58,746 nucleotides of DNA from a virus (IMGVR_UViG_3300050029_000207:1-58746), one strand, 5' to 3'; shown: positions 1-58,746, counted from the stretch's first letter. Notes: generated by a model from the letters alone, not told the origin. Numbers and translations: made by a program.

Positions 1-127
1 CAAAATCTGGCCGGAATAATCCGCCTATCTGCCCGCAGTGCAAATCCGAACTCCGGCAAATGAGCACGCTCTGGTCAAAATGTCCTAAATGCGGCATCAG
101 AATAATGAACAGCGTGGCCGCGATGCC
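1..127. repeat. terminal overlap identical to 58620-58746 (circular assembly)
   Basis: 127-nt exact repeat at both ends; an ORF reads across the junction. Confidence 0.95.
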
Positions 128-232
128 CAGCGAAAAAAGCTGAGCCACCGCCGACTAAAATCTATGAATATAAATAACCTTCTCGGACAACTGCCATGCG
201 TAACGGCGGTTGGCTCCGGCGACTGGTTGGGC
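125..232 (-). mobile_element. attC: attC site (integron cassette recombination site)
   Basis: plus strand GCCCAGC-GAAAAAA-GCTGAGC...GCTCCGGC-GACTG-GTTGGGC; imperfect inverted repeat with R and L boxes; left core deviates (AGC for AAC). Confidence 0.85.
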
Positions 233-235
233 GTC

Positions 236-286
236 CGACTGCAAGGAGAGCGTCCAATAGGCGTTTCTTGCAGTGATTTGTTAAGC
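236..286 (-). mobile_element. attC: truncated attC (one arm only)
   Basis: GCAGTGATTTGTTAAGCGGCG identical to the right end of the 1328-1427 site. Confidence 0.6.
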
Positions 287-307
287 GGCGAACAACGACA
301 ACCAAAA

Positions 308-751
308 ATGAAAACTAAAATAGAACTGACTGACTCAATCCAAGACGTGCTGTTCAAAATGTCCGAAGGCAATCCCGGCGCTCTGACTGTGTGCCTGGGC
401 ATCCTCGAACACGGCGAGAAAATAGACCCCGACAACGCAATGGGCGGACTCGGAATAATCCTCTCGCTCGACACGCTTGGACTCTACGGCTCAAAAATCT
501 GGATGTTGTTCAGAGACGTGTGTGAAAGCGACCTCGCTCAAATGCTCGCCATGCTGCGTGGGTGGCAACTCGGAATGCTGTCAGAAACCCAAGTGCGTCA
601 CGCGGTCGAAAATCACGGCGATGGCATCAATGTCGCCGACATCTGCCAAAAAGTCACCGAACGTCTGCCGCGCTTCCAACTGAAGCCGCCGAACATAAAA
701 GCTCACCCCACTGCCGCGAAAGCGAGCGTGGACGGCACTGAAAATCTATGA
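308..751 (+). CDS. hypothetical phage protein (cassette cargo); alternative in-frame start at 164 inside attC
   Basis: ORF 89..751; A-rich leader before ATG 308; C-terminus PNIKAHPTAAKASVDGTENL encoded by the next attC arm. Confidence 0.75.
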   Translation: MKTKIELTDSIQDVLFKMSEGNPGALTVCLGILEHGEKIDPDNAMGGLGIILSLDTLGLYGSKIWMLFRDVCESDLAQMLAMLRGWQLGMLSETQVRHAVENHGDGINVADICQKVTERLPRFQLKPPNIKAHPTAAKASVDGTENL

Positions 752-762
752 GTGAAACCAAA
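688..762 (-). mobile_element. attC: partial attC (left arm only)
   Basis: GCCGAAC-ATAAAA-GCTCACC...; 699-762 identical to 52674-52737 of an intact site. Confidence 0.7.
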
Positions 763-918
763 TACGCCACAATGCAAGACCTCGCGGTGTGCTCGTTCAT
801 AAACGCCTCACGCATGGCCGAAGCCGGGCATCTGAAACAGGCATATATGGAAGCCGAATCAGGGCAACGCCAACTGAAAGCGGCGATAGGTGCAATTTCG
901 CCGAACGACCGCGCATGA
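748..918 (+). CDS. small hypothetical protein, 56 aa (MSETKYATMQDLAV...PNDRA)
   Basis: ATGA overlaps with both neighbouring ORFs; below ORF-track cut-off. Confidence 0.6.
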   Translation: MSETKYATMQDLAVCSFINASRMAEAGHLKQAYMEAESGQRQLKAAIGAISPNDRA

Positions 919-999
919 GCCACGCCGCACCAATGACCACCGCCCGCGATAGCGGACTGACGACGCCAATAGGCGTTGGCTCCGTGCGCTTGGTTAGGC
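900..999 (-). mobile_element. attC: attC site
   Basis: GCCGAAC-GACCGC-GCATGAGC...GCTCCGTGC-GCTTG-GTTAGGC. Confidence 0.9.
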
Positions 1000-1346
1000 G
1001 GCGTGCGACAAAACTCTCTGCGTCCGATGTCCTAATAAATCTGCGCGACTGGGCCTGGCTTGAGGCTCGCGTCGAGGCCGAACCGTCAAAGCAAAATATC
1101 TGGCTGGCTGTCCGCGACTGGGCGAACGGAATTGCCGCCAAAAATAAAATTGAACTTACCGCGCCCTGCCCCGAAAACCGCGAACCGCTGACAGACCGGG
1201 ATTTGAGTCTGTCGAATAATTTTGGGAGCGGCGAAAGCCTAGAGCGTGATAAATCTGGCGCAACTATCCATCCGCAAAGTCACCGTTTGGCAAAATGCTC
1301 GCAAGTCCAGATTGCTCCCAATCAGCCGCCTAACGACCGCGCATGA
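915..1346 (+). CDS. hypothetical protein (cassette cargo) starting inside attC
   Basis: ATG at 915 or 933 within attC, reading through GTTAGGC; ends PNDRA in next attC. Confidence 0.6.
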   Translation: MSHAAPMTTARDSGLTTPIGVGSVRLVRRRATKLSASDVLINLRDWAWLEARVEAEPSKQNIWLAVRDWANGIAAKNKIELTAPCPENREPLTDRDLSLSNNFGSGESLERDKSGATIHPQSHRLAKCSQVQIAPNQPPNDRA

Positions 1347-1427
1347 GCCACGCCGCATTAACGACTCCCGCCCGCGATAGCGGAACTGAATGCGCCAACG
1401 GCGGTTCGCAGCAGTGATTTGTTAAGC
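1328..1427 (-). mobile_element. attC: attC site (hybrid arms)
   Basis: GCCTAAC-GACCGC-GCATGAGC...GCAGCAGT-GATTT-GTTAAGC. Confidence 0.8.
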
Positions 1428-1453
1428 GGCGGAATCGTAACACTAAACAAAAA

Positions 1454-1831
1454 ATGAAAACTCAAACCCTCGAAGAATATCACGCCGGGCTAAAGGCTCA
1501 AGGCGTGCCAATCGAACACTGCGCGATGCGCTGCCCGATGTGCGGCACAATCCAAAGCGCGCAAGACCTGATAGCGGCTGGCGCTGGGAAGAACCTCGAT
1601 GAAGTCGAAAAGTATCTCGGCTTCTCCTGTGTCGGAAGATGGACACACCAAAAGCCACCGCCGAAGGAAAAGGGAACACAGCACGGATGCAACTGGACTC
1701 TGGGCGGACTGTTCCAGTGCCACGACCTCACCGTGATAACACCGGACGGCGCGAAGTGTCCCCGCTTCGAGCTATGCACGCCAGAGGAAGCGCAGGCGCA
1801 CATGCACGAGCGCGATACTGTAGCCGCTTAA
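1454..1831 (+). CDS. VVA0879-like Cys-rich phage protein (cassette cargo)
   Basis: CPMCG...FSCVGRW...GCNWTLGGL motifs; stop TAA lies in attC core GCTTAAC. Confidence 0.75.
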   Translation: MKTQTLEEYHAGLKAQGVPIEHCAMRCPMCGTIQSAQDLIAAGAGKNLDEVEKYLGFSCVGRWTHQKPPPKEKGTQHGCNWTLGGLFQCHDLTVITPDGAKCPRFELCTPEEAQAHMHERDTVAA

Positions 1832-1924
1832 CGAAAAAAGCTGAGCCACCGCCGACCTGCGACGTGAACCGCGATAGCGGAACGGACAGCGCCAACGGCG
1901 GTTGGCTCCGGCGACTTGTTAGGC
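1826..1924 (-). mobile_element. attC: attC site
   Basis: GCTTAAC-GAAAAAA-GCTGAGC...GCTCCGGC-GACTT-GTTAGGC; near-identical to 58228-58326. Confidence 0.95.
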
Positions 1925-1951
1925 TGCAACTCGTGAACTGACATAAAATCT

Positions 1952-2203
1952 ATGGAAAACAAAACTGAAACAACTCGGTTCCATGTTGAAAAACGAAACG
2001 GCATCATCGCCGTGTATGACATGAAACATCCGAAATATGATCCAGACAGGCAAGGCTGCCACTCTGACCTGCCGTGGGTAGTCGCGGCGTGGCACGGATA
2101 CAACGACGCCAAAGAAGGATGGTGTCTGTACGACTGGTAAATCTTAAAAGCTGAAAATCTATGTGCCATGCTAAATGCGAAGTGGCCTAACGATCCGAAC
2201 TGA
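1952..2203 (+). pseudogene. cassette cargo gene with probable premature TAA at 2138-2140 (or an intact 62-aa gene)
   Basis: frame continues ILKAENLCAMLNAKWPNDPN* into the next attC as neighbouring cassettes do. Confidence 0.5.
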
Positions 2204-2296
2204 GACACCCGCGACCTATGACTCTCGAAAAACCAGAAACCTTTACGGACAACCCGCAAGCGCCAACGCGGGTTGTCTCGAGTGAGTCTGTTAGGC
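2185..2296 (-). mobile_element. attC: attC site
   Basis: GCCTAAC-GATCCG-AACTGAGACACCCGCG...CGCGGGTTGTCTCGAGT-GAGTCT-GTTAGGC. Confidence 0.85.
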
Positions 2297-2601
2297 CGAC
2301 GGCAACATCGGAACAACTCTACGGAATATCGGAGCAGCCGAAACCGACCTGCCCGATGATAGACTCCGTGATAGCCGACCTGCAAAAGTGCTACCGCGAA
2401 ATGAATCGGTGGGAACGGCACAAAGACGACGCCGAATATCTGGCGCAAGTGCTGGACACCGTGGCGTGGATAATCGGAAACATGGAGCCAGGCCTAGAAA
2501 AAATCCGAGACAATGCAGACAAAATACGCGGATGGGGTCAGGAATGGAAAGACCTCGCCAAAGAACACGCGCCGAAACCGGACGAAACGGAGTCGGCCTA
2601 A
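2218..2601 (+). CDS. hypothetical helical protein (cassette cargo) starting inside attC
   Basis: ATG in attC loop; PTCPMIDSVI...IRGWGQEW; stop in next core. Confidence 0.75.
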   Translation: MTLEKPETFTDNPQAPTRVVSSESVRPTATSEQLYGISEQPKPTCPMIDSVIADLQKCYREMNRWERHKDDAEYLAQVLDTVAWIIGNMEPGLEKIRDNADKIRGWGQEWKDLAKEHAPKPDETESA

Positions 2602-2703
2602 CGAAAAAAGCTGAGCCACCCGCGACTAAAATCTATGCAAATCAATAACCTTCTCGGATTACTGACAGCGCCAACGCGCATTGGCTCCGGCGACTTGTTA
2701 GGT
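2596..2703 (-). mobile_element. attC: attC site
   Basis: GCCTAAC-GAAAAAA-GCTGAGC...GCTCCGGC-GACTT-GTTAGGT. Confidence 0.9.
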
Positions 2704-2729
2704 GCGGACGTGATAACTGAATAAAAATT

Positions 2730-3026
2730 ATGAAAATAAAAATACCGGCGGTGGAAAAAGAAGTCTGCGACATATGCGGACGCGATGGAATACTTGAAAC
2801 ATGCGTGGTGTGTGGAAACCGATACTGCCTGATCTGCCACTGCTATCTTCCGGGCTGCATGGTGCGCCCCGACGTGTGCAAGAAGTGCGACAGCCGCGCC
2901 GACGTGAATCAAATCTCGAAACGCTTCGGGCTGCTCATCCACGACCTATGCAAACAGCGCGAGGCCGAACTGAAACAACTAGCACCTAACAATGTTATTA
3001 GGCCAAACCCGGAATCAGATCACTAA
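2730..3026 (+). CDS. multi-CxxC zinc-binding protein (attI-proximal cassette cargo)
   Basis: CDIC, CVVC, CLIC, CKKC; reads through ACCTAAC into attI-like site. Confidence 0.75.
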   Translation: MKIKIPAVEKEVCDICGRDGILETCVVCGNRYCLICHCYLPGCMVRPDVCKKCDSRADVNQISKRFGLLIHDLCKQREAELKQLAPNNVIRPNPESDH

Positions 3027-3027
3027 C
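2984..3027 (-). mobile_element. attI: attI-like site
   Basis: minus strand GTTAGTG...GTTTGGCCTAAT-AACATT-GTTAGGT: core plus degenerate inverse core, no attC hairpin, at the array end. Confidence 0.65.
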
Positions 3028-37991: not shown

Positions 37992-38021
37992 AGACTCAAT
38001 AGAAAGTGTCGCCTTTTTAGT

Positions 38022-38216
38022 TCAAGAAGGCAAGTCTTTTCTTCTTAAATTCCCCTCGCTGAAAATGTGCAAAATTCCACGACCGTCCTCGACGACCCGT
38101 CTGATTTTGCCAGACTTCTTTTGGAATGTGCTGACGACTACCCCTTCAAAGGAGTAGTCTCCGCCTGTCTTTTCAACGCTGTCACCAACTGCAAACTGGC
38201 ATTCAATTCCTGGCAT
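38022..38216 (-). CDS. small SH3-like hypothetical protein
   Basis: FAVGDSVEKTGGDYSFEGVVV. Confidence 0.6.
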   Translation of the reverse strand: MPGIECQFAVGDSVEKTGGDYSFEGVVVSTFQKKSGKIRRVVEDGRGILHIFSEGNLRRKDLPS

Positions 38217-44838: not shown

Positions 44839-45483
44839 TTAGTTTGTAAATGGGTTCGGGATGATTTCACGAATTTTATCCGCCTGCCATTTCCGCTCAG
44901 ATTTTCGGGCGTAGGCGTAGGCGGCGTCGGCGTAGGCGGCGTCGGCGGCGTAGGCGGCGGCGGCGGCGTAGGCGGCGGCGGCGGCGGCGTAGGCGGCGTA
45001 GGCGGCGTCGGCGGCGTCGGCGGCGTAGGCGTCGGCGTCGGCGGCGGCGTAGGCGTCGGCGTCGGCGGCGGCGTAGGCGGCGGCGGCGGCGGCGGCGGCG
45101 TAGGCGGCGTAGGCGGCGTCGGCGGCGTAGGCGTCGGCGTCGGCGGCGGCGTAGGCGGCGGCGGCGGCGGTTCTGCAAGCTGAACGATTTTCTTCCGTCG
45201 GATCACTCGCCCATTTCCGAGCCGACCTGATTGCCTTCCGTGGTCTCTTGTTGTTTGGATTTTTCTTCTCGTAAATCGCCAGAACGTGTTCGGCGCATTC
45301 GCAGGCCAATAAGACTGTTTGTGGCTTGGTGATGGCGCTTGTTTTGCGAAGGAGCCAGATCAGCCAGTCTCCACATTCGCAGGTCGCGTAGATTTTGGCG
45401 AAGTCGAAGTCGCAGGAAGCGGCGAACGCAAGACCGTCTCGGCAGGGATAAAGGTCGAGGAGTTGCTGTTTTGTGAATTTCAT
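44839..45483 (-). CDS. Ala-rich repeat phage protein (Imm5-like domain)
   Basis: GDWLIWL...ACECAEHVL.IYE...DKRPR-like motif, A/Y/D repeat, ERKWQADKIR. Confidence 0.7.
   Translation of the reverse strand: MKFTKQQLLDLYPCRDGLAFAASCDFDFAKIYATCECGDWLIWLLRKTSAITKPQTVLLACECAEHVLAIYEKKNPNNKRPRKAIRSARKWASDPTEENRSACRTAAAAAYAAADADAYAADAAYAAYAAAAAAAAYAAADADAYAAADADAYAADAADAAYAAYAAAAAAYAAAAAYAADAAYADAAYAYARKSERKWQADKIREIIPNPFTN
44908..45170. repeat. coding low-complexity repeat (GGC/GTA/GTC triplets)
   Basis: encodes (A)nY/D tract. Confidence 0.9.
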
Positions 45484-45924: not shown

Positions 45925-45953
45925 AGCATCGCTTGAATCGGTCAAGAAGGCAA
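45925..45953 (-). promoter_or_regulatory. sigma70-like promoter TTGCCT-N17-GATGCT
   Basis: part of ~79-bp inverted copy of 52140-52218. Confidence 0.6.
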
Positions 45954-45962
45954 GAACTATTT

Positions 45963-46160
45963 TCATAAATCTTTCACCAACGGCGCAAGTGGTTGATTTG
46001 CAATTGATTTTCGCGGTCTTCCAACCGTCACATTTCGCTTCCCGCAAGCCGGGCAACGACCTGGATTCCGCTTGGCGAAACCGCAATGCCGGCAAATAAA
46101 CCGAGCGGTTGCGCGGTATTTTTCAACCGTCTTCCAGGCCATTGAAGCGGGATTCGTCAT
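45963..46160 (-). CDS. zinc-ribbon protein
   Basis: CRHCG...CPACG. Confidence 0.55.
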   Translation of the reverse strand: MTNPASMAWKTVEKYRATARFICRHCGFAKRNPGRCPACGKRNVTVGRPRKSIANQPLAPLVKDL

Positions 46161-49031: not shown

Positions 49032-49412
49032 TTATTGAAAGAATTGTTTTAAATCTGGCTTCGAATACAACTTGCTCTTCATGACCTTTCCATCGGGTGC
49101 GAAGATTGGTTTTCCGTTTTCATCGAGCTTGGACATATTCGAGCGGTGAACCTCATTAAACGCTGAATCCTTCAAGAAGGCAAGCCCAAATTGAAGAAAA
49201 GAACCCTCCACGACATATGTTATGTCAACTAGCGCGTCAAGAACCCCGACAACATCATCAGCTTCCAGCGCTTCACGGAGTTCGTCAATCTCTTCCTGGA
49301 TGAGCCGCACGCGCAATAACTGTGTCTTCTTGTCGCTGAGAGTTGGGTGAGGTTCATTCTTGACGCCGAAAGCGTCGTGGAACTCGCGGACTTGTTCGAT
49401 TGTTGATTTCAT
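49032..49412 (-). CDS. MazG-like NTP pyrophosphohydrolase
   Basis: VREFHDAF, IQEEIDEL, DALVDITYV, EVHRSNMSK, DGKVMK. Confidence 0.9.
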   Translation of the reverse strand: MKSTIEQVREFHDAFGVKNEPHPTLSDKKTQLLRVRLIQEEIDELREALEADDVVGVLDALVDITYVVEGSFLQFGLAFLKDSAFNEVHRSNMSKLDENGKPIFAPDGKVMKSKLYSKPDLKQFFQ

Positions 49413-51106: not shown

Positions 51107-51891
51107 ACCGCGTAAAATGGACGGTTGGCCTTGTCGAGATCACAGAGTTCGTTGCGAATTTCATTCAAGGCGTCTGCGAAACCGTGCAACGACACGGATC
51201 GTTGTCGCAGAAATGGCGATTTCAACCTTGACCATGCCGCGACCGCTGTCCTAATCAATACAGCGGTTCCCAGGCCACCTTGCAAGAGCTTCTTTACAGC
51301 CTTGCCGTCTCTGCCGCCGTTGAACGAATAGGGAACGCCGTGTGCTTTCAAGTATTCGTCCGTCCACTGTTTTATAAACACAGCGTGCTCCGACGGCGTT
51401 TTGGTTTCAGGAACGGCGTCTGCGCAAGCAGAAACTTCTTTCTTCTTCTTCTTTGGTTCTTCTTTCTTGGATAGTTCTTCTTCCGGTATAGTTCTTCTTA
51501 AGTAGGCCGCGCTCCCGTTCGACGGCTTAGGGTCGCACGGGTCAGCCGCTGACGGGGTGGGGCTTCCAGACGACTTTCCGTCCTCGGCGGCGTTCCCGGC
51601 TGAATCGAAGAACGTCCAAATGCAGTCCGTTAGCCCAGTGGCCGCGTTTCCGACTCGGTGAAAAGTCACATAGCCGAACTTCTTAAGTTCGCCGAGTGCG
51701 CCACGAATTGCGTCACGGCCTTCAGTTCCTTGCCCCTCAAGCCATCCGGCTGTGACATTCCAGTCTTCGCGGTTGGTCAGAACCATCGCAAGAACACCCC
51801 TCGCTTTGAATGAGAGCCTTTTGTCCCTGAGCATTTCGTTTGGAAGAACCGTGAAGTTGGCGGAGAGTTTCCGCCGAATTATCGTAGCCAT
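51103..51891 (-). CDS. replication initiator/replisome organiser (wHTH)
   Basis: NFTVLPNEMLRDKRLSFKARGVL...GRDAIRGALGELKKFGYV. Confidence 0.8.
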   Translation of the reverse strand: MATIIRRKLSANFTVLPNEMLRDKRLSFKARGVLAMVLTNREDWNVTAGWLEGQGTEGRDAIRGALGELKKFGYVTFHRVGNAATGLTDCIWTFFDSAGNAAEDGKSSGSPTPSAADPCDPKPSNGSAAYLRRTIPEEELSKKEEPKKKKKEVSACADAVPETKTPSEHAVFIKQWTDEYLKAHGVPYSFNGGRDGKAVKKLLQGGLGTAVLIRTAVAAWSRLKSPFLRQRSVSLHGFADALNEIRNELCDLDKANRPFYAV

Positions 51892-52048
51892 AAATTCCAA
51901 AAAGAAAACAGCAGCCGAGCGGAAGCGAGAAAAGGTCGGGCGGTGCGGTTGCCCATTGCTTCCAAACGACTGCTGCTTAAAACAAAAAGCGCACCAATTG
52001 ACCATTCGCTGTTTCTCGCAGCGGCCAACCTTTTCGGTTGACGGCTAA

Positions 52049-52077
52049 ACTTTGCCCGCGTTCGCCGCAAAAGGCAA
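52049..52077 (-). promoter_or_regulatory. putative leftward promoter TTGCCT-N17-CAAAGT
   Basis: same -35 hexamer as other candidate promoters; in the divergent intergenic region. Confidence 0.45.
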
Positions 52078-52189
52078 CAAAATTCCGCAAAAATGTTTGC
52101 AACGCCTGCTTTTCGCGCTTTTTCTTGAAAAGTATTTCCTTGCAAATCAGCCACTTGCGTCCGATTTGAAAGATTTGTGAAAATAGTTC

Positions 52190-52218
52190 TTGCCTTCTTG
52201 AAGGGTTTGAGCGATACT
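52190..52218 (+). promoter_or_regulatory. rightward promoter TTGCCT-N17-GATACT heading the cassette arm
   Basis: 17-nt spacing, AT-rich upstream, 50 nt before first plus-strand ATG. Confidence 0.65.
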
Positions 52219-52268
52219 GATCACGTTGAAGGCAATTCCGCTCTCAACGAACAAAATAAAAACTGATT

Positions 52269-52535
52269 ATGAAAACGAACACGAACGAAAAGACAAACCT
52301 GAAAGCAATCCAAACTGAAATGATGGCTCGCCGCCGCGAACTGATTGACGCGCAAAAGAAGCAGGGTGGAGGATGCGGCGCAATCCAACTCAAGTCTGAC
52401 AACCTGCTGTTCTGCTACAATCCGAACCGCACCGAAAGCAAGACCAACCCGCTCGGCGAAAAGTTCTATGTCACCGGGACAATGAACGGATGCCCGGTCA
52501 TCGTGAATGAGTTCACAATCTACGAGGCCGCATGA
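52269..52535 (+). CDS. hypothetical early protein
   Basis: A-rich leader; ATGA coupling. Confidence 0.65.
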   Translation: MKTNTNEKTNLKAIQTEMMARRRELIDAQKKQGGGCGAIQLKSDNLLFCYNPNRTESKTNPLGEKFYVTGTMNGCPVIVNEFTIYEAA

Positions 52536-52726
52536 AGAACCAAGCCGCTCAATCCCTCGGACGCCTTGGCGGTCTGGCGAAGTCGAAAGCCAAGACTGCT
52601 GCCGCGCGTCGGAACGCAAAACTTGGTGGACGCCCGAAGAAACCCAAACGCGCCGCCCGGCTGCCCAACGACCAAGCTCACCCCACTGCCGCGAAAGCGA
52701 GCGTGGACGGCACTGAAAATCTATGA
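52532..52726 (+). CDS. small basic phage protein
   Basis: AAQSLGRLGG..KS.AKTAAARRNAKLGGRPKK; C-terminal tail encoded by attC. Confidence 0.7.
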   Translation: MKNQAAQSLGRLGGLAKSKAKTAAARRNAKLGGRPKKPKRAARLPNDQAHPTAAKASVDGTENL

Positions 52727-52790
52727 GTGAAACCAAAAGCATCGAATCGGAAACGCTAGCGGCAGTTGCGGGTGCAGCGCGTGGTTCGGC
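52663..52790 (-). mobile_element. attC: attC site (distal end of array)
   Basis: GCCCAAC-GACCAA-GCTCACC...GGTGCAGC-GCGTG-GTTCGGC. Confidence 0.85.
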
Positions 52791-52995
52791 TCACCGCGAC
52801 TTCCTCGCATTCCTTCTCTACGCATCGGAAAGCGGTCGGCGTGGAGAACTCCCGTGCCGATGGGGAACGCTGCGCGACGACCTGAAAGAGAAGTGGCTGA
52901 ACACCGCAGACACGAAAATGAACGAATGGCTGGCGAGCGAAGAAGAAGCCCGCAAGAGCAGAGATGCCCATAATCCGAGGGCGTTCTTCTGTTGA
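52723..52995 (+). CDS. hypothetical protein (cassette cargo) starting inside attC
   Basis: ATG in attC loop; stop immediately before next core. Confidence 0.7.
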   Translation: MSETKSIESETLAAVAGAARGSAHRDFLAFLLYASESGRRGELPCRWGTLRDDLKEKWLNTADTKMNEWLASEEEARKSRDAHNPRAFFC

Positions 52996-53120
52996 GCCGA
53001 ACGACCAAGCTCACCCACAGCCGGGTGAGCGGGCAACCAACTGAAACCAAATCTTTATGACACCAGAAACGAATAAATCCGAAGCGCCACCGGCTGTTGC
53101 GGTGCAGCGCGTTGTTAGCC
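52996..53120 (-). mobile_element. attC: attC site
   Basis: GCCGAAC-GACCAA-GCTCACCCACAGCCGG...CCGGCTGTTGCGGTGCAGC-GCGTT-GTTAGCC. Confidence 0.9.
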
Positions 53121-53275
53121 CTCGCTGCCCCCAATGTGGCAAACCAATCGAAACACCTGTGGCGAGAGAAATCACGCAGCGTGATAATCGAAGCCCACGT
53201 GGAATACGGACAAATCGATATGACTTTTGTAGCGTCCAATGCGGGGCACACTACCAAATGGGATGCGAGGGCTAA
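53057..53275 (+). CDS. YacG-like zinc-finger protein (cassette cargo) starting inside attC
   Basis: CPQCGKPI...DFCSVQC; stop in next core. Confidence 0.7.
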
Positions 53276-53320
53276 TCGCAGAGTCCAGCCATGCCGGGCC
53301 AGTGACGCCCGGACTCGGCT
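53270..53320 (-). mobile_element. attC: degenerate attC left arm
   Basis: GGCTAAT-CGCAGA-GTCCAGC-CATGCCGGG; no partner arm nearby. Confidence 0.55.
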
Positions 53321-53410
53321 ACATGACATGCGCCTCCCCTACCACTATATTTACTGGCACCAAAACCTGCGTGCCGCCAACCAACAACAAATCCTTTTCG
53401 CAATGTTTTT

Positions 53411-54169
53411 ATGAATATCAAAATCAATTCAGTCTTCGGTTCGCTGAAATTCGAAGGTGACTTCTCGTCGCTGAAAGAATGCGTTATGGCCGCGATTAAA
53501 AGCGATGCCAACCTGCGCGATGCCAACCTGTGCGGTGCCAACCTGTGCGGTGCCAACCTGTGCGGTGCCAACCTGTGCGGTGCCAACCTGTGCGGTGCCA
53601 ACCTGTGCGGTGCTGACCTGTGTGGTGCCAACCTGTGTGGTGCTGACCTGTGCGGTGCCAACCTGTGCGGTGCCAACCTGCGCGATGCCAACCTGCGCTA
53701 TGCCAACCTGTGTGGTGCCAACCTGTGTGGTGCTGACCTGTGCGGTGCTGACCTGCGCGGTGCCAACCTGTGTGGTGCTGATCTGTGCGGTGCCAACCTG
53801 CGCGGTGCTGACCTGTGTGGTGCCAACCTGTGTGGTGCTGATCTGTGCGGTGCCAACCTGCGCGGTGCTGACCTGCGCGGTGCCAACCTGCGCGGTGCTG
53901 ACCTGCGCGGTGCTGATCTGTGCGGTGAGAAAATTAAAACCGCGCGAATCTTCGCGGGATTGTATCGCTATCAAGTATATGCTATTTTGAACACTAAAGG
54001 TCAACGGTTTGTGAAGATGGGCTGCTTATTCAAGTCGCTTGAGGAATGGGAAAAGGTTGGAATCCTTGAATCGAACCTGGCCGAGTTCCCGAACGACGGC
54101 TCGCGCAAAAGCCTTGAGCGCAAAGAAGCATTCGACTTTGCGAAGAATGCAGCCCTTAACCTTGAATGA
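53411..54169 (+). CDS. pentapeptide repeat protein
   Basis: tandem A(N/D)L(C/R)G repeats, 15-bp period at ~53505-53926. Confidence 0.95.
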
Positions 54170-54567
54170 TTATGAAACTCCGCCTCAACAAGCGCACCCT
54201 CGCCGACATGCCGACGCCGGTTCGCTCCCTCGTCACCGAATGGCGCAACCGCTGGCACAAGACCTTCATCAGCGTCTGCACCCGCACCGAGTTCTGCCCC
54301 GGTGAAGACGCCAAGGTCATCATGATCAACCTGCTGACCGGTGCCGCCGTTCAGCAGCGCGTTGCCGGCGAATGGGCGGGCGTGACCCGGCTGTCACCTA
54401 CGGACAACATCCCCCTGCCGGAAGGCTGCGTCGCTGTCGTGACGGGGATCTTTATGGGTCACCCTTGGCTCACCGTTTATCAGGGTGCGCCGGGTGCGGT
54501 GGCGAAACTGAACAATGAACCGTTAAAGATGGAAGGCGCAATGATTGCGTGCCCGGCGGAAAGTTGA
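54166..54567 (+). CDS. hypothetical protein
   Basis: ATGA overlap, coding-like codon usage. Confidence 0.6.
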   Translation: MIMKLRLNKRTLADMPTPVRSLVTEWRNRWHKTFISVCTRTEFCPGEDAKVIMINLLTGAAVQQRVAGEWAGVTRLSPTDNIPLPEGCVAVVTGIFMGHPWLTVYQGAPGAVAKLNNEPLKMEGAMIACPAES

Positions 54568-54568
54568 A

Positions 54569-54868
54569 ATGAAAGTCAAATACTTTTCCCTGACCGGAAG
54601 CTTCGAAGGCGGAATGAAGATCCGAGGCCGCTGGGTTTATGTAACCGACCTGAGCCACGTTGATAAAACCGGCTGGGAACGAATCATGACCGGCGATATG
54701 ACGCCGGCAATGGCAGGGTGCCTGAAGTGCGCCTCGATCACCGCCGGAACCGCCATCAGATTTTACGAACACGGACCAATTTCGCCGGAGTTTCCTAATC
54801 AGTTCTCCGGCACCGCCAGTGGCCCAATTCCGACCGTTTCGGCGGCGGGCGCTGGCGGGTTAATTTAG
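54569..54868 (+). CDS. hypothetical protein
   Basis: ATG 2 nt after previous stop. Confidence 0.55.
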   Translation: MKVKYFSLTGSFEGGMKIRGRWVYVTDLSHVDKTGWERIMTGDMTPAMAGCLKCASITAGTAIRFYEHGPISPEFPNQFSGTASGPIPTVSAAGAGGLI

Positions 54869-54878
54869 AAAGAAAATC

Positions 54879-55361
54879 GTGAATAAAACCTCCAAAACCG
54901 CCTCCCTCTCCGCCTTGCCGTCTAAAATGACGCAGGCGGAGCCGGAAGCGCCAACCGCCCCAACGTCACGCCTGGCCAATTTGGACGCCTTGGATAGCCT
55001 TCCAGGAGCCTCGGCGACCGCCCCGGCCTTCATGGAAGAGTTTTACGAGCTTGTCGGCACCGAATGGAAGTGCCGAGGGGTGATCCCGAGGGCTGCCGGC
55101 CAAATCACCGACTGCGAGAATTGCGGCGGAAGCGGATTTTACGCCCACGGAGAAACGGATCACCCAATTCAGCTTCAGTGCAGGTTCTGCGGCGGCTGCG
55201 GAAAGACTGAGCGGAGAATTTGCTGGGAGGGGAAGCTTGAATACGACCTGACCGAGCCGCTGACTGTTCAGCGCTGCTTCCAGGATTACGTCATCAAGGC
55301 CAGCGTGAAGAAGCCGGCAAGGGTGAGGGCGATACTTTTGCCGCTGACGATGGAGAAATGA
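54879..55361 (+). CDS. protein with DnaJ-type CxxCxGxG zinc motifs
   Basis: CENCGGSG...CRFCGGCG. Confidence 0.6.
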   Translation: MNKTSKTASLSALPSKMTQAEPEAPTAPTSRLANLDALDSLPGASATAPAFMEEFYELVGTEWKCRGVIPRAAGQITDCENCGGSGFYAHGETDHPIQLQCRFCGGCGKTERRICWEGKLEYDLTEPLTVQRCFQDYVIKASVKKPARVRAILLPLTMEK

Positions 55362-55365
55362 ATTT

Positions 55366-55545
55366 ATGAACAAATCTGAACTGATAGACCAATCCAACGC
55401 CCTCTACGGCCAGCTTGAGAAAGCTCGCCGCATGAACGACTACGATTCCGCGCAGGCTATCTGCGATAAGTTGTCACAGGTGAATAAGCGGCTTCACCTG
55501 ATTGAACTTCAGGAGGCGGCGGAACGCGATGGGAAAATAATGTAA
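55366..55545 (+). CDS. small helical protein (59 aa)
   Basis: MNKSELIDQ...; fills the gap between neighbours. Confidence 0.5.
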   Translation: MNKSELIDQSNALYGQLEKARRMNDYDSAQAICDKLSQVNKRLHLIELQEAAERDGKIM

Positions 55546-55553
55546 GAAAGACC

Positions 55554-55582
55554 TTGCCTTTTGAACTGGAAAGAGGTTTAAT
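55554..55582 (+). promoter_or_regulatory. promoter TTGCCT-N17-TTTAAT
   Basis: shares CTTGCCTTYTTGAA with the 52190 promoter. Confidence 0.6.
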
Positions 55583-55624
55583 TGAGGCTGTCATTCGAAA
55601 CCGCATCTTAAGCGGCCATTGAAA

Positions 55625-55813
55625 ATGAAAAATCAACTCGGCATCCGCCAACAAATCGAGAAGGCCTCGTCAGCCGCTGAAATTCAGCTGCTGATTACTG
55701 AGGCACACACCTACAAGAAGATCTCAACCGCAACGCTGAACGGCATCAACCGGACGGCGGACAAGCGGCTGAAGGAACTTACAACGCAGTCAACCAAGAA
55801 AGGAAAACAGTAA
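55625..55813 (+). CDS. hypothetical protein
   Basis: first ORF after promoter. Confidence 0.6.
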   Translation: MKNQLGIRQQIEKASSAAEIQLLITEAHTYKKISTATLNGINRTADKRLKELTTQSTKKGKQ

Positions 55814-55814
55814 T

Positions 55815-56603
55815 ATGTCCCGTAGCAATCCTCAGCAACAATTAACTCACCCAAGCCGCTGCTGGTTTGAGGTGAATGGTGAAACCGGCCAAATCTTCCA
55901 TTACGACCGAGAGCAGAAGAAGAAGATCAATCACGACCTGTCATTCGTGTTCATTTTGCTCGACGAATTATCCGTCATCAAGGGCTGGCACGAGGCCTCG
56001 GAGTCCGGCATCACCAGCAATGAAGTCCGCGACACCCGGCAGGAGGTCTTCGTCGTCAAGGCATTCAAGGGCGGAATCATCGCCAGCGGCCACTATAACT
56101 TCATCAAGGATAAGGTTGCGGCGCAGGGCGGCAGTTATCATTCCAACCTCTACATCGCCTTCAAGGACACGGACGGCACTCTTGCCATCGGTTCACTGAT
56201 GCTGCGCGGTGCGGCGCTGTCGGCCTGGTTTGAGTTCCGCAAGAAGAACCGCAGCAATACCGTCGAGGTCGCCGGCAAGAAGGTCTCCGTCCTTTACGCC
56301 AAGGCAATCTGCATCAAATCATTCAGCGAAGGCAAGAAGGGCAGCATCAAATTCAAGTATCCTGACTTCAGCCTGTCGGAGATCAAGCCGGAAACGAACG
56401 AGCAGGCCATCGCCCTCGACCGCGAGCTTCAAGAGTTCCTGACCGCCTACCTTCAGCGGAACAAGGCGGAAGCGGCTGCGCAGCCGACGCATGAAGGCGT
56501 TCAGGAGGATCCAGTGGTCGGCAATCAGGAGGCTCCCGAGCCGGAACCGCCGAGCAAGCCGGAACCGCAACCGGAGCCGGAAGACGGGGATGTCCCGTTC
56601 TAA
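55815..56603 (+). CDS. putative single-stranded DNA-binding/annealing protein
   Basis: acidic Pro-rich tail ending DGDVPF; upstream of exonuclease. Confidence 0.65.
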   Translation: MSRSNPQQQLTHPSRCWFEVNGETGQIFHYDREQKKKINHDLSFVFILLDELSVIKGWHEASESGITSNEVRDTRQEVFVVKAFKGGIIASGHYNFIKDKVAAQGGSYHSNLYIAFKDTDGTLAIGSLMLRGAALSAWFEFRKKNRSNTVEVAGKKVSVLYAKAICIKSFSEGKKGSIKFKYPDFSLSEIKPETNEQAIALDRELQEFLTAYLQRNKAEAAAQPTHEGVQEDPVVGNQEAPEPEPPSKPEPQPEPEDGDVPF

Positions 56604-56690
56604 GCAACTTCCCTCGCCTGACCGCATACTGCTTAACGGCTCGCCCGCGTGTGCGGAACGGGTCGGCGGCAGGCGAGGGGATCAATTTAT

Positions 56691-56782
56691 GAGCGTGTGG
56701 CGGAATGCAAATACGCAGCGGCAAGCTGAGTGTGGACCGGATGCCGGAACACCAATTGCAGGTTCAAATCCTGCCGCGCTCA
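56691..56782 (+). ncRNA. tRNA-like RNA without canonical anticodon arm
   Basis: acceptor GAGCGTG/CGCGCTC-A, D-arm GCG..CGC, T-arm GCAGG-TTCAAAT-CCTGC. Confidence 0.7.
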
Positions 56783-56801
56783 CCCTTTGAAACAAAAAAA
56801 A

Positions 56802-57686
56802 ATGAAAATAACAAACAAATTAAATCTACCTGATAACCTCGTCCGCGCCGTCACTTACAGCGACTACAACCGGGGGGATGTTGATTATAGCGTAACGGGT
56901 CTTCTTAACCCGCCACGAATCCTTGCGCTGAAGGCCAAGCATCACGACAAGATCGAAGAGGACGCCAGCGACCTCATATTCGCCGCCATCGGCTCGGCAG
57001 CCCACGAGCTTTTCCGTCGGTCGTCTGACGGCATCAACAAGATCGTTGAAAAGCGGTTCTTCGCAACCGTTGACGGCAAGAAGATCAGCGGTCAGGTGGA
57101 CTTGGCTGAAGACGGCGGCATGATAGAGGATTTCAAGATTTCATCCGTATGGGCGATGACTCACGACGCCAAAGAATCTTGGGAACAACAACTTAACATT
57201 TACCGTTGGCTGTGCAAGCAGAACGGAATCGAGATTAAGGCGTTGAGAATCATTTGCGTTGGCAGGGACTGGTCAAAACGCGAAGCGGCTCGAGATTCAA
57301 ATTACCCCCAGGCGCAGGTGGTCGTGTTCAACCTGAATGTCTGGGACTTGGCCGAAACCGAACGCTTCATCAAAGAGCGCATTGCGCTTCACGAGGCGGC
57401 CAAGGTAACGCTGCCGGAATGCTCCCCTGAAGACCGGTGGCAAAAGGATGACGCCTTTGCAGTGATGAAGGTTGGAAGGAAGTCAGCCGTCAAGATTCAC
57501 CACAAGCGCGAACTGGCGGATCAGCACCTAGAAGTCGCCGGAAAGGGGCATTACCTTCAGGAGCGCAAGGGGACCAGTATCCGCTGTGAGAGCTACTGCT
57601 CGGTGGCACCATTCTGTGAATGGTGGCAGAACAACAAGCTTAAAGAAGATCCGGCAACGGTGATTAGTCCGGAAGAAGCTATCTGA
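56802..57686 (+). CDS. PD-(D/E)XK (Cas4/RecB-like) exonuclease
   Basis: YSVTGLL, IGSAAHE, ISGQVDL, IEDFK, QQLNIY, RCESYCSVAPFC. Confidence 0.85.
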   Translation: MKITNKLNLPDNLVRAVTYSDYNRGDVDYSVTGLLNPPRILALKAKHHDKIEEDASDLIFAAIGSAAHELFRRSSDGINKIVEKRFFATVDGKKISGQVDLAEDGGMIEDFKISSVWAMTHDAKESWEQQLNIYRWLCKQNGIEIKALRIICVGRDWSKREAARDSNYPQAQVVVFNLNVWDLAETERFIKERIALHEAAKVTLPECSPEDRWQKDDAFAVMKVGRKSAVKIHHKRELADQHLEVAGKGHYLQERKGTSIRCESYCSVAPFCEWWQNNKLKEDPATVISPEEAI

Positions 57687-57742
57687 ACCGCGAAGCGGAA
57701 CTGAAGGCGCTATCGGCGGTTAGCTCCATGCGGTTGTTGGGC
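57684..57742 (-). mobile_element. attC: attC right arm only
   Basis: TGAACCGCGAAGCGGAACTGA...GGCGGTTAGCTCCATGC-GGTT-GTTGGGC, homologous to right halves of intact sites. Confidence 0.7.
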
Positions 57743-57765
57743 TGGCGCGACTGCGATACACGAAA

Positions 57766-58215
57766 ATGAAAACGAAAAAAGTCAACCGATATTACTGCGA
57801 CTTCTGCAAGAAATCGAACTGCTCTGGCGGCGCGATGGCTCTCCACGAAAGACACTGCACGCTCAATCCAAACCGGACGTGTCGTATGTGTAAAGAACCT
57901 CGCAACATACCAGAACTGGTGAAGCTGATTCCGAGTGCTGAACAGTTCCACAAAACCACAATAGACCACGGCGAAGGATACGGCTCTTGCAACTGTGACC
58001 ACTATGAAGGATGGGGCGATACCTACAAAGAACCGCTCCAAAAAGTGCGTGATGCCTGCAATGAATGTCCGGTGTGCATCTTTGCTGTGCTCAGGCAATC
58101 AAAAGTGCCAATCTACATCTTTGACTTCGACTTCAAAAAAGAGGTCGAATCATGGTGGGCTGAAAAGAATGAAGAAGCACGCGAACAGGAAGAATATGCG
58201 GCAATCCACGGATGA
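57766..58215 (+). CDS. multi-Cys zinc-binding protein (cassette cargo)
   Basis: YYCDFCKK...HERHCTLNPNRTCRMC...CPVCI. Confidence 0.75.
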   Translation: MKTKKVNRYYCDFCKKSNCSGGAMALHERHCTLNPNRTCRMCKEPRNIPELVKLIPSAEQFHKTTIDHGEGYGSCNCDHYEGWGDTYKEPLQKVRDACNECPVCIFAVLRQSKVPIYIFDFDFKKEVESWWAEKNEEAREQEEYAAIHG

Positions 58216-58227
58216 CGTGACCGCGCA

Positions 58228-58326
58228 GCCTAACGAAAAAAGCTGAGCCACCGCCGACTCGCGACGTGAACCGCGATAGCGGAACTGACAGCGCCAACGG
58301 CGGTTGGCTCCGGCGACTTGTTAGGC
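58228..58326 (-). mobile_element. attC: attC site
   Basis: GCCTAAC-GAAAAAA-GCTGAGC...GCTCCGGC-GACTT-GTTAGGC. Confidence 0.95.
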
Positions 58327-58346
58327 CATGGCTCAACGAACAAAAT

Positions 58347-58544
58347 ATGAAAACACTGACTGATACCGACCCGATGCCCTTCGGAAAATACAAGGGCGAA
58401 CCAATGCAAGACGTGCCTGCGAGCTATCTGCACTATCTCTGGCAGAATGGCCTCGCCGCCGACAAGCAATCTAACGTGGCGGACTACATCCGCCGAAACA
58501 TAAACGCTCTGAAATTGGAGCATAAAGATGGTGTCTGGGCGTAG
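58347..58544 (+). CDS. DUF3820-family protein (cassette cargo)
   Basis: MPFGKYKG..MQDVPASYLHYL. Confidence 0.85.
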   Translation: MKTLTDTDPMPFGKYKGEPMQDVPASYLHYLWQNGLAADKQSNVADYIRRNINALKLEHKDGVWA

Positions 58545-58558
58545 TGGCCTAACAAAAA

Positions 58559-58746
58559 ATGAAAACCGAAAACTCACGCCGATACAAATGCGTCCAATGT
58601 GGCGCAAAAGGTCGGCACTCAAAATCTGGCCGGAATAATCCGCCTATCTGCCCGCAGTGCAAATCCGAACTCCGGCAAATGAGCACGCTCTGGTCAAAAT
58701 GTCCTAAATGCGGCATCAGAATAATGAACAGCGTGGCCGCGATGCC
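58559..58746 (+). CDS. triple-CxxC zinc-ribbon protein spanning the circular junction (stop at 141-143)
   Basis: MKTENSRRYKCVQCG...CPQCK...CPKCG...MPSEKS*; missed by ORF track; preceded by isolated core GCCTAAC 58547-58553. Confidence 0.7.
   Translation, partial: MKTENSRRYKCVQCGAKGRHSKSGRNNPPICPQCKSELRQMSTLWSKCPKCGIRIMNSVAAM

Follow-up and report, generated by a model that had tools for sequence, protein, structure and literature searches.

Integron attC sites without an integrase are already known from phages. Qi et al. (2023; PMC9892861) scanned 10,705 genomes of phage isolates and found integron parts in 21 phages, among them 17 integrase-less attC clusters carried by virulent as well as temperate phages. 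IntI1 recombined five of the six phage attC sites tested into attI1, and phages were proposed as carriers of cassettes. The same work sets the threshold for a cluster of attC sites lacking integron integrases (CALIN) at two or more attC sites close together, with integrase absent nearby. Here we describe two such clusters in the virus genome IMGVR_UViG_3300050029_000207, a stretch of 58,746 nucleotides that was analyzed over its whole length and is referred to as the window. We consider it highly probable that they are two integron cassette arrays without an integrase, that their sites belong to the attC family of the host integrons, and that the integrase IntI would be supplied in trans. An earlier note, made from the sequence alone, had recognized attC-type hairpins in the window and described such sites as rare in phages. 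The kind itself is not new, because phage-borne integrase-less attC clusters had been reported (PMC9892861); the sections of the argument that follow concern the origin of the sites, the footprints of recombination and the polarity of the genes.

The repeated unit consists of a 7-nt box (e.g., GCCTAAC), a spacer of ~10 nt, an arm GAGCCAC followed by 4-5 variable letters and a variable loop; its second half holds the complementary arm, broken by one extra T, a spacer of ~9 nt and the inverted box GTTAGGC. For detection we trained a covariance model, R1, on 89 sequences of the family, of which seven belong to the window, 26 to 18 virus records and 56 to bacterial loci, and applied it without filters to both strands of the whole window. 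R1 returned nine sites, all on the + strand with E values from 1e-24 to 5e-7, that form cluster A (52663-53120) and cluster B (from 58228 through the circular junction to 2703). The next + strand match after these nine had E = 1.7, and otherwise none fell below E = 0.018. With the plain expression RYYYAAC..GTTRRRY, seven matches were obtained; R1 supports neither of the two that fall away from the arrays (15199 and 24993), so the motif by itself is unspecific. All nine sites that the earlier note had listed as intact were recovered by R1, yet two of them are damaged: in site 125-232 the AAC triplet has become AGC, and site 1328-1427 does not fold. The five partial sites of the same note are also present, and by nature they are half-sites (57685, 236, 685) or lone boxes (58547, 53270). 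Its span of 125-3027 covered only part of the feature, whose true extent is 52663-53276 plus 57685 through the junction to 3004. The passage of the array through the junction was read correctly, with cluster B traversing the 127-nt terminal repeat.

Eight of the nine window sites keep the AAC...GTT triplets. The rows of the 89-sequence alignment, however, were picked by a regular expression that required AAC, GTT and part of the L helix; triplet invariance is therefore true by construction, and evidence comes from the free columns only. Among these, the outer box columns are 92% paired. The L helix, of 12 bp, is 94.9% paired, with a single bulged T in all rows and compensatory changes in six pairs. 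Pairing extends to 93.8% of the 1687 helix cells, and in 169 of them both sides have changed, which none of 500 shuffles matched, whereas slid controls were 21-43% paired. Site lengths range from 99 to 128 nt in the window and from 90 to 129 nt in the family, and the loops of different types cannot be aligned. The central spacer measures 10 versus 9 nt in all copies; it is mostly unpaired in the 99-nt type, and in site 900 it pairs over 5 bp. When folded as single-stranded DNA, the best copies reached z ~ -3 and sites 1826 and 900 were moderate (z ~ -1.7), while 125 and 2596 stayed at chance level and 1328 failed to fold (z +1.0 against shuffles).

Hairpins that separate small genes of one direction, that overlap with stop codons and whose loops contain start codons could also be RNA-level elements of the early transcript, serving in processing, termination or translation control and resembling attC by convergence, and the 99-nt type is indeed terminator-like on the opposite strand, where a stem is followed by a T run. 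The substitutions in the helix do not fit this explanation. The five free L-helix pairs show 151 double changes (12-41 each) and only 0-3 one-sided changes of the G-U type each, so that almost no G-U intermediates are seen and the covariation fits DNA pairing better than RNA pairing. Furthermore, complementarity is lower between the two boxes of one site than between those of neighboring sites, which an RNA hairpin function would not tolerate, and the sites share letter identity with host integron sites beside intI (see below). At gathering score, Rfam yielded one tRNA only; no attC family was noticed among the matches, which makes this blank little informative. We regard convergence at the RNA level as extremely improbable.

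The origin of the sites is indicated by bacterial genomes. A scan with the repeat pattern found it in at least 120 bacterial stretches, with as many as nine copies in 8 kb; 63 of the 80 that were listed are labeled as Verrucomicrobia or its subgroups. Four of five such genomes encode TIGR02249 integrases (399-423 bits, against a cut-off of 265). In five of the six intI regions fetched, the first site lies 0.5-1.2 kb from intI, and four of the six carry arrays of 7 to more than 20 sites. One Verrucomicrobiae genome holds at least 150 sites (150 of ~2130 candidates were scored), with further arrays elsewhere in addition to the two that adjoin intI (see table). The hosts thus have co-oriented arrays beside intI and attI, and the window lacks intI. 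The host arrays beside TIGR02249-class intI, the identity of one window site to host copies over 99 of 99 letters and the shifted complementarity of the boxes bear out the integron attC identity proposed by the earlier note; at the level of sequence, it is strongly supported that the window hairpins are true integron attC sites. Verrucomicrobiae of the Limisphaerales/Pedosphaera type are the probable hosts. Separately, Verrucomicrobia-type attC arrays were observed on contigs of metagenome-assembled genomes (MAGs) labeled 'uncultured Bifidobacteriaceae' (L042, L049, L072, L077, L085, L086, L096, L102, L112 and L113); the labels or the binning of these MAGs look doubtful.

The genome is complete (58,619 bp, circularly closing, with an IMG/VR rating of 100%). 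Portal, large terminase, DNA polymerase, primase-helicase, clamp and replication initiator are encoded on the minus strand between ~3.5 and 52 kb, and a module of small genes runs on the + strand from ~52.2 kb through the junction to ~3.3 kb. Searches with PF00589 and TIGR02249 gave zero matches in this genome even at E <= 10, and no resolvase or Y1 transposase was detectable, while control genomes were positive in each case. The statement of the earlier note that no tyrosine recombinase is recognizable in the complete genome therefore holds. With two clusters of 2 + 7 sites and no integrase anywhere, the locus is a CALIN and, lacking intI, not a complete integron. No prophage form was found among 201 genomes of the host order, where portal matches occurred in 13 and reached just 27-31% identity.

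The repeat pattern is not confined to this virus: it was found in 23 stretches from 21 IMG/VR virus records, and R1 has matches in all 21 of these records (1-18 each). The terminase family of the window occurs in only one of the 21 (46-65% identity) and its DNA polymerase in none, which places the arrays in unrelated backbones; when the window was compared with 40 virus loci by nucleotide BLAST, one match of 150 nt was obtained. IntI-like genes (TIGR02249, 229-271 bits) stand beside attC sites in four of the 21 records, co-directional with the cassette genes, and three of these four records also have a terminase-like gene. They may represent complete integrons on phages. Such records would be expected if the arrays were fossils, that is, if an ancestral phage had built the cassettes with its own IntI, the integrase was lost and the sites persist, with no more site-specific recombination, only as expression modules whose loops supply leaders and start codons. 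One of the four records shares the terminase family of the window, a basic open reading frame (ORF) of the window occupies the position that intI has in the IntI-carrying records, and two window sites are damaged and several partial, all of which would agree with this history. On the other hand, identity to host copies is 99-100% in two sites and extends to the unconstrained loop, which points to recent contact with host arrays; seven of the nine sites retain the AAC triplet, the helices and the bulge; and the probable hosts carry integrases that look active from their sequences, so that supply in trans would be available. A fossil array is in our judgment unlikely.

Each R box of a cassette array is made of halves contributed by different cassettes, and the right box is therefore expected to match the left box of the next site. 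The next left box was a better partner for the right box than the left box of the same site in 37 of 42 informative pairs from phage arrays (own better in 4, one tie), in 39 of 52 from host arrays and in 4 of 6 from the window; a control shift in the opposite direction gave 15 versus 17. The left box of site A2, GCCGAAC, is complementary to the right box of A1. When lone boxes are included, the matches in the window run from 52996 to 53270 (GGCTAA), from 2596 to 2984 (ACCTAA), from 1328 to 1826 (GCTTAA) and from 900 to 1328. Because the lone boxes 53270 and 2984 match the sites preceding them, each cluster opens with a full site and closes with a lone six-letter box, which is the product expected from insertion of units at a simple target.

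Comparison with other phages places the breakpoints at the crossover (written here with a slash, AA/C). The homology that ORF 52532 shares with other virus records stops at the AA/C of box 52663-52669, and nucleotide identity to the window falls from 64-90% through GCC[CT]AAC to 29-38% directly after the C in four comparisons. Past this point, the other records carry an attC of another type, or an attI-like box and then a basic ORF in the case of a complete 56-kb phage. The earlier note had asked whether gene-content breakpoints between related phages coincide with AA/C, and in these four comparisons they do. Additionally, contigs from the run of another study hold 900-1336 (site 900 and ORF 915) with 0-1 differences per piece and without the neighboring unique genes, and the match ends ~3 nt past box 1328-1334.

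Gene shuffling by homologous recombination between the ~100-nt repeats, without an integron integrase, would account for a different set of observations. Site 1328 is a chimera whose left arm is like that of 900 and whose right arm is like 236-286, and the partial site 685-762 shares 92% identity with site 52663; exchanges of this sort are located within the repeats, away from the box. Such a process predicts breakpoints anywhere in the repeat, in disagreement with the drop in identity at the C of AAC. It likewise leaves the shift of box complementarity by exactly one site (37 of 42 pairs) without an explanation, whereas site-specific insertion agrees with the lone boxes of six letters at 53270 and 2984. 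We consider homologous recombination without an integron integrase very unlikely as the cause of the gene shuffling. Two candidate traces of events were rejected. The idea that cluster A fills an empty site, with ORF 52532 once continuing in a frame that is open to 53414, found no match for the tail peptide in the compared loci. Contig joints such as 1924-2596 and 1948-2186, viewed as excision products, have sides of < 45 letters with 90% likeness and probably derive from host arrays.

Cluster B ends at a short region (2984-3004) that sits inside the 3' end of ORF 2730 and whose box is complementary to the right box of B7. Its layout matches five host attI regions located between array and intI, three virus records in which an IntI-like gene comes next, and two virus records in which a homologue of ORF 3028 comes next (45-64% identity). 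No accessory integrase-binding repeats were identified at 2984-3004. The likeness is short, and we rate an attI-like site as probable, not proven; the earlier note had reached the same end point for the array. ORF 3028 itself showed no IntI likeness and no Pfam or PHROG family, its Atlas matches were at chance level and its Atlas model was of low confidence. In one of the two records with an ORF 3028 homologue, L020, the cassette nearest to the attI-like box (~6082-5480, minus strand) is DNA methyltransferase-like, with a DPPW motif and a start codon in the attC loop; Qi et al. (2023; PMC9892861) likewise mention phage cassettes for methyltransferases.

The polarity of the phage genes was assessed against the definition of the recombinogenic bottom strand, which carries 5'-RYYYAAC in R', is cut between A and C, and has its extrahelical bases on the arm opposite the AAC triplet (Nivina, 2016). 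As the layout and the bulged T of the window match this definition, the + strand is the bottom strand and the crossover is GCCTAA/C. Two or three extrahelical bases are described for attC (Nivina, 2016), while only one clear bulge is present here. Since the coding + strand is the bottom strand, the phage genes are antisense to normal cassettes, and the canonical order of a top-strand ORF followed by attC is not found in the window. Each of the five host arrays has this strand directed towards intI. In host cassettes, the longer ORF lies on the canonical strand in 215 of 279 and in the bottom-strand sense in 61 of 279, with 3 ties; in phage cassettes (eight loci from seven other virus records), it lies in the bottom-strand sense in 41 of 45. 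The difference between 41 of 45 phage and 61 of 276 decided host cassettes is significant (Fisher 3e-19), and an earlier count with uneven flanks gave 37 of 47 for phage cassettes. By phage codon usage, 13 of 15 + strand ORFs of the window score best in their own frame. ORF 1454-1831 matches phrog_32023 with E 3e-45 and has homologues of ~50% identity in Ochrobactrum, Dolichospermum and Yersinia phages. Within the virus collection, it had one match of 21 residues and ORF 308 had no relative. A protein search with ORF 915 returned relatives at 90% and 85% identity, on short contigs, and a metagenome scan with it gave no match. Because reversed polarity breaks the textbook rule of promoterless genes read from Pc, the phage genes would make up a second class of cassette.

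Several sequence details accompany this polarity. Start codons lie inside attC loops or arms at 162, 748, 915, 2218, 2635, 52723 and 53057, often with an AAATCT leader upstream, so several proteins begin with residues that are encoded by the right arm of a site. The same leader with ATG is present in the 108-nt site type of host arrays. At 58245-58260 on the minus strand, and in three other sites with an A6 spacer, the canonical sense shows a stem and then TTTTTT, in the manner of a terminator; in the phage sense of the 99-nt site, the run is A6 and is placed before the stem. This placement may be the reason for read-through in the reverse polarity only.

The soundness of the assembly was evaluated in public contigs. 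In the run that holds the phage best, unique cassette pieces have a depth of 19-23, compared with 23 for the 42-kb backbone contig, and this contig starts inside B7 and continues, by way of the last cassette and the attI-like region, into the backbone. Public contigs span sites 900, 1328 and 2185. Fragments of host arrays joined into the phage contig via shared repeats could give a similar picture, as the 99-nt site type has a summed depth of 28,519 in this run, about a thousand times that of the phage (~21), and public contigs break at three sites. The matching depth of the cassette pieces, the bridged sites and the link of B7 to the backbone all contradict an artefact, as do the phage codon usage of the cassette genes, their orientation antisense to host polarity and the presence of the same layout in seven other virus records. 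We hold an artefactual join to be scarcely credible.

Several observations weigh against the interpretation of the clusters as host-type integron arrays that are moved by an integrase in trans. R1 is specific to the family and was trained partly on seven of the nine sites, leaving 52663 and 52996 as the only independent detections. The spacer between the R and L helices, at 9-10 nt, is partly pairable in some copies and is longer than in the textbook attC. The array is partly decayed, since site 125 has no AAC and site 1328 cannot fold. Sites 125, 1826 and 2596, three of the seven in cluster B, are unbridged because their site type is about a thousand-fold deeper in the community, and the order there rests on the original assembly. 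The phage cassette ORFs have almost no counterparts in 1.18 Mb of host array DNA: a tblastn search with the window cassette ORFs against the host loci gave zero matches, and a search with 1839 ORFs from phage loci, the window included, matched mainly integrases and attC-encoded peptides, together with one 154-aa protein common to phage and host loci at 60% identity. Exchange of cargo with the host is for this reason not demonstrated. Among the records compared, there was no close relative for a comparison of cassette order, the neighboring exonuclease reaching <= 44% identity, and no recombination event, circle or cassette-order variant was seen in the contigs.

We propose the following mechanism. 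The + strand early or accessory module of this virulent-type phage is probably built as two integrase-less cassette arrays, in which each unit comprises an attC hairpin, a small phage gene and six box letters ending at the crossover AA/C. The genes would be read from phage promoters towards the attI-like site 2984-3004. An integron integrase provided in trans, by the host or by a co-infecting phage that carries IntI, would act on the bottom strand when it is single-stranded and folded, and its cut at AA/C would lead to excision, insertion or swap of units, so that accessory genes could be exchanged among unrelated phages. The identity and polarity of the sites, the traces of recombination and the lack of a recombinase in the phage are observed; the choice of integrase, its continued activity in this phage and hence the borrowing of a host IntI proposed by the earlier note are inferred. 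Mobilization of the units by a host IntI that still acts here would be the most likely process.

A broader proposal is quite possible, if slightly short of probable: phages of Verrucomicrobiae may keep a pool of their own of reverse-sense cassettes that are traded between unrelated backbones by host or phage IntI. Members of this pool would carry ribosome-binding leaders and start codons inside the attC loop, and their stop codon would often be the TAA of the crossover box. With this polarity, one phage promoter could serve the entire array, since the stem and T run of the common host-type site exist in the canonical sense only; the bottom strand, moreover, would become exposed during transcription and lagging-strand synthesis. 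Its role as template of the lagging strand is a guess, because GC skew gave no clear replication origin, the cumulative minimum being flat across 51-57 kb. A promoter scan of 51800-58746 was at chance level, with 4 found and 3.0 expected. If the proposal is true, the phages would possess a fast-shuffling bank of accessory genes that mirrors the cassette bank of their hosts. Large chromosomal integron arrays have been reported to store anti-phage defence systems (10.1101/2024.07.02.601686). Integrons have been studied as bacterial devices, and the arrays suggest that phages of one phylum share the same recombination currency. The origin of a reverse-sense class bears on the open question of how cassettes form, and the mechanism offers a testable route by which a virulent phage without a recombinase could swap accessory genes.

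Some further features lie elsewhere in the genome. Directly after cluster A, a pentapeptide-repeat protein (PF00805, 1.9e-45) is encoded at 53411-54169, with ~26 tandem 15-nt units at 53427-53996. The minus-strand ORF 44839-45483 contains 26 copies of a 9-nt periodic repeat (44851-45214), so that its product may be a triplet-repeat protein, for instance of the collagen-like kind. Between a 262-aa ORF and an exonuclease-like ORF lies a tRNA gene of 92 nt (56691-56782; Rfam tRNA, 34.9 bits) whose extra arm is long. A conserved intergenic motif, TCAAGAAGGCAAG, occurs at 38014-38049, 45934-45969 and 49164-49199, and its reverse complement is present at ~52.19 kb, where genes diverge; a phage-specific promoter is one possible function. 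The features of the arrays, and those of the loci compared with them, are listed in the table.

Table. Coordinates of sites, cassette ORFs and related features in the window and, in the last rows, in other genomes and loci.
Feature	Position	Strand	Remark
Direct terminal repeat, 127 nt	1-127 = 58620-58746		identical copies
ORF, 64 aa	52532-52726	+	first 45 residues common to four other phage records
attC A1, 128 nt, long-loop type	52663-52790	+	R1 36.5 bits, E 5e-7; not in training set
Cassette ORF, 90 aa	52723-52995	+	start codon within A1 loop
attC A2, 125 nt	52996-53120	+	R1 40.2 bits; not in training set
Cassette ORF, 72 aa	53057-53275	+	start in A2 loop; stop is TAA of lone box; DUF7576 below cut-off
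Lone box GGCTAA/T, end of cluster A	53270-53276	+	first six letters complementary to A2 right box
Degraded site, right arm only	57685-57742	+	64% repeat match; R1 E 4.1, weak
Cys-rich ORF, 149 aa	57766-58215	+	ORF call
attC B1, 99-nt host type	58228-58326	+	99/99 identical to host array copies; R1
Cassette ORF, 65 aa, PF12843 family	58347-58544	+	family match
Lone box GCCTAA/C, no hairpin behind	58547-58553	+	complementary to right box of preceding site
Zinc-ribbon ORF, 67 aa	58559-58746 through junction to 143	+	ORF call
attC B2, 108 nt	125-232	+	R1; crossover triplet degraded to AGC
Extra right arm	~236-286	+	resembles right arm of 1328 site; sequence reading
Cassette ORF, 147 aa	308-751	+	ORF call, codon usage
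Left arm and loop of long-type site	685-762	+	92% identical to 52660-52737; holds start of ORF 748-918
attC B3, phage type	900-999	+	96% identical to site in another phage record, ~75% to host sites
Cassette ORF, 143 aa	915-1346	+	start inside B3; cassette present by itself in runs of other studies
attC B4, arms of different origin	1328-1427	+	R1; not folding as hairpin
Cassette ORF, 125 aa, phrog_32023	1454-1831	+	stop is TAA of box GCTTAA/C
attC B5, host type	1826-1924	+	98/99 identical to host copies; R1
Cassette ORF, 62 aa	1952-2140	+	ORF call, codon usage
attC B6	2185-2296	+	compensatory changes in L helix; R1
Cassette ORF, 127 aa	2218-2601	+	start in B6 loop, end at GCCTAA/C
attC B7, 108-nt type	2596-2703	+	92% identical to host copy; R1
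Last cassette ORF, 98 aa	2730-3026	+	last 12 codons beyond crossover point
attI-like end site (probable)	2984-3004	+	box ACCTAA/C, three letters, imperfect inverted box
Basic ORF, 93 aa	3028-3309	+	directly behind attI-like site; homologues likewise placed in two other phage records
ORF 3028 homologues, ~92 aa	L035 ~10897-10620; L020 ~5429-5160	-	behind attI-like box, where IntI-carrying records have intI
IntI-like genes of virus records	G020:C1:42113-43000; G014:C1:28474-29355; G025:C1:32472-33122; G024:C1:474-1361		TIGR02249
intI-adjoining arrays of one Verrucomicrobiae genome	G001:C3:197319-260444 (~63 kb); G001:C2:654528-727243 (~73 kb)		very large chromosomal integrons

The arrays resemble the CALINs of Qi et al. 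(2023; PMC9892861) in that attC arrays with small ORFs occur in phage genomes without an integron integrase. That study differs in having covered no metagenomic viruses, and the word 'Verrucomicrobia' occurs 0 times in the text of the article (PMC9892861). Unlike those CALINs, the present sites are tied to specific host integrons by letter identity, the arrays are present in all 21 IMG/VR records found by the pattern, and the genes are antisense to cassette polarity. Literature searches yielded no account of such arrays for metagenomic viruses or Verrucomicrobia phages, and none of all-antisense arrays in sources that comprise the text of PMC9892861 but not its supplementary tables, where orientations are possibly listed. 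Reverse polarity and the recurrence across phage lineages thus appear to be unreported. Insertion at attG, a non-attI target described in bacterial genomes (10.1101/2022.09.11.507474), would explain how cassettes entered the phage backbone, and cluster A, which ends in AA/T and not in AA/C, would be consistent with a secondary target.

The host elements are like the sedentary chromosomal integrons of the Vibrio type, with intI, attI, tens to hundreds of cassettes and near-identical attC sites (Richard et al., 2024; PMC13108822). The attC family of these host sedentary integrons includes the phage sites; unlike the host elements, the phage has no intI and no sign of a Pc-type promoter, its genes have the opposite polarity and its arrays are short, with two and seven sites. 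Phages of the T4 type possess mobile promoter stem-loop cassettes in hyperplastic regions, which bear promoters and are thought to be driven by homologous recombination. The window shares with them repeated intergenic stem-loops that flank small accessory genes and are tied to modular shuffling, but its repeats are integron sites with site-specific footprints. CTX-phi uses a host tyrosine recombinase that acts on a folded single strand, and the whole phage integrates at dif. Similarly, the phage described here, which has no recombinase of its own, would rely on a host tyrosine recombinase and a folded single-stranded site, with the difference that the units moved would be single genes.

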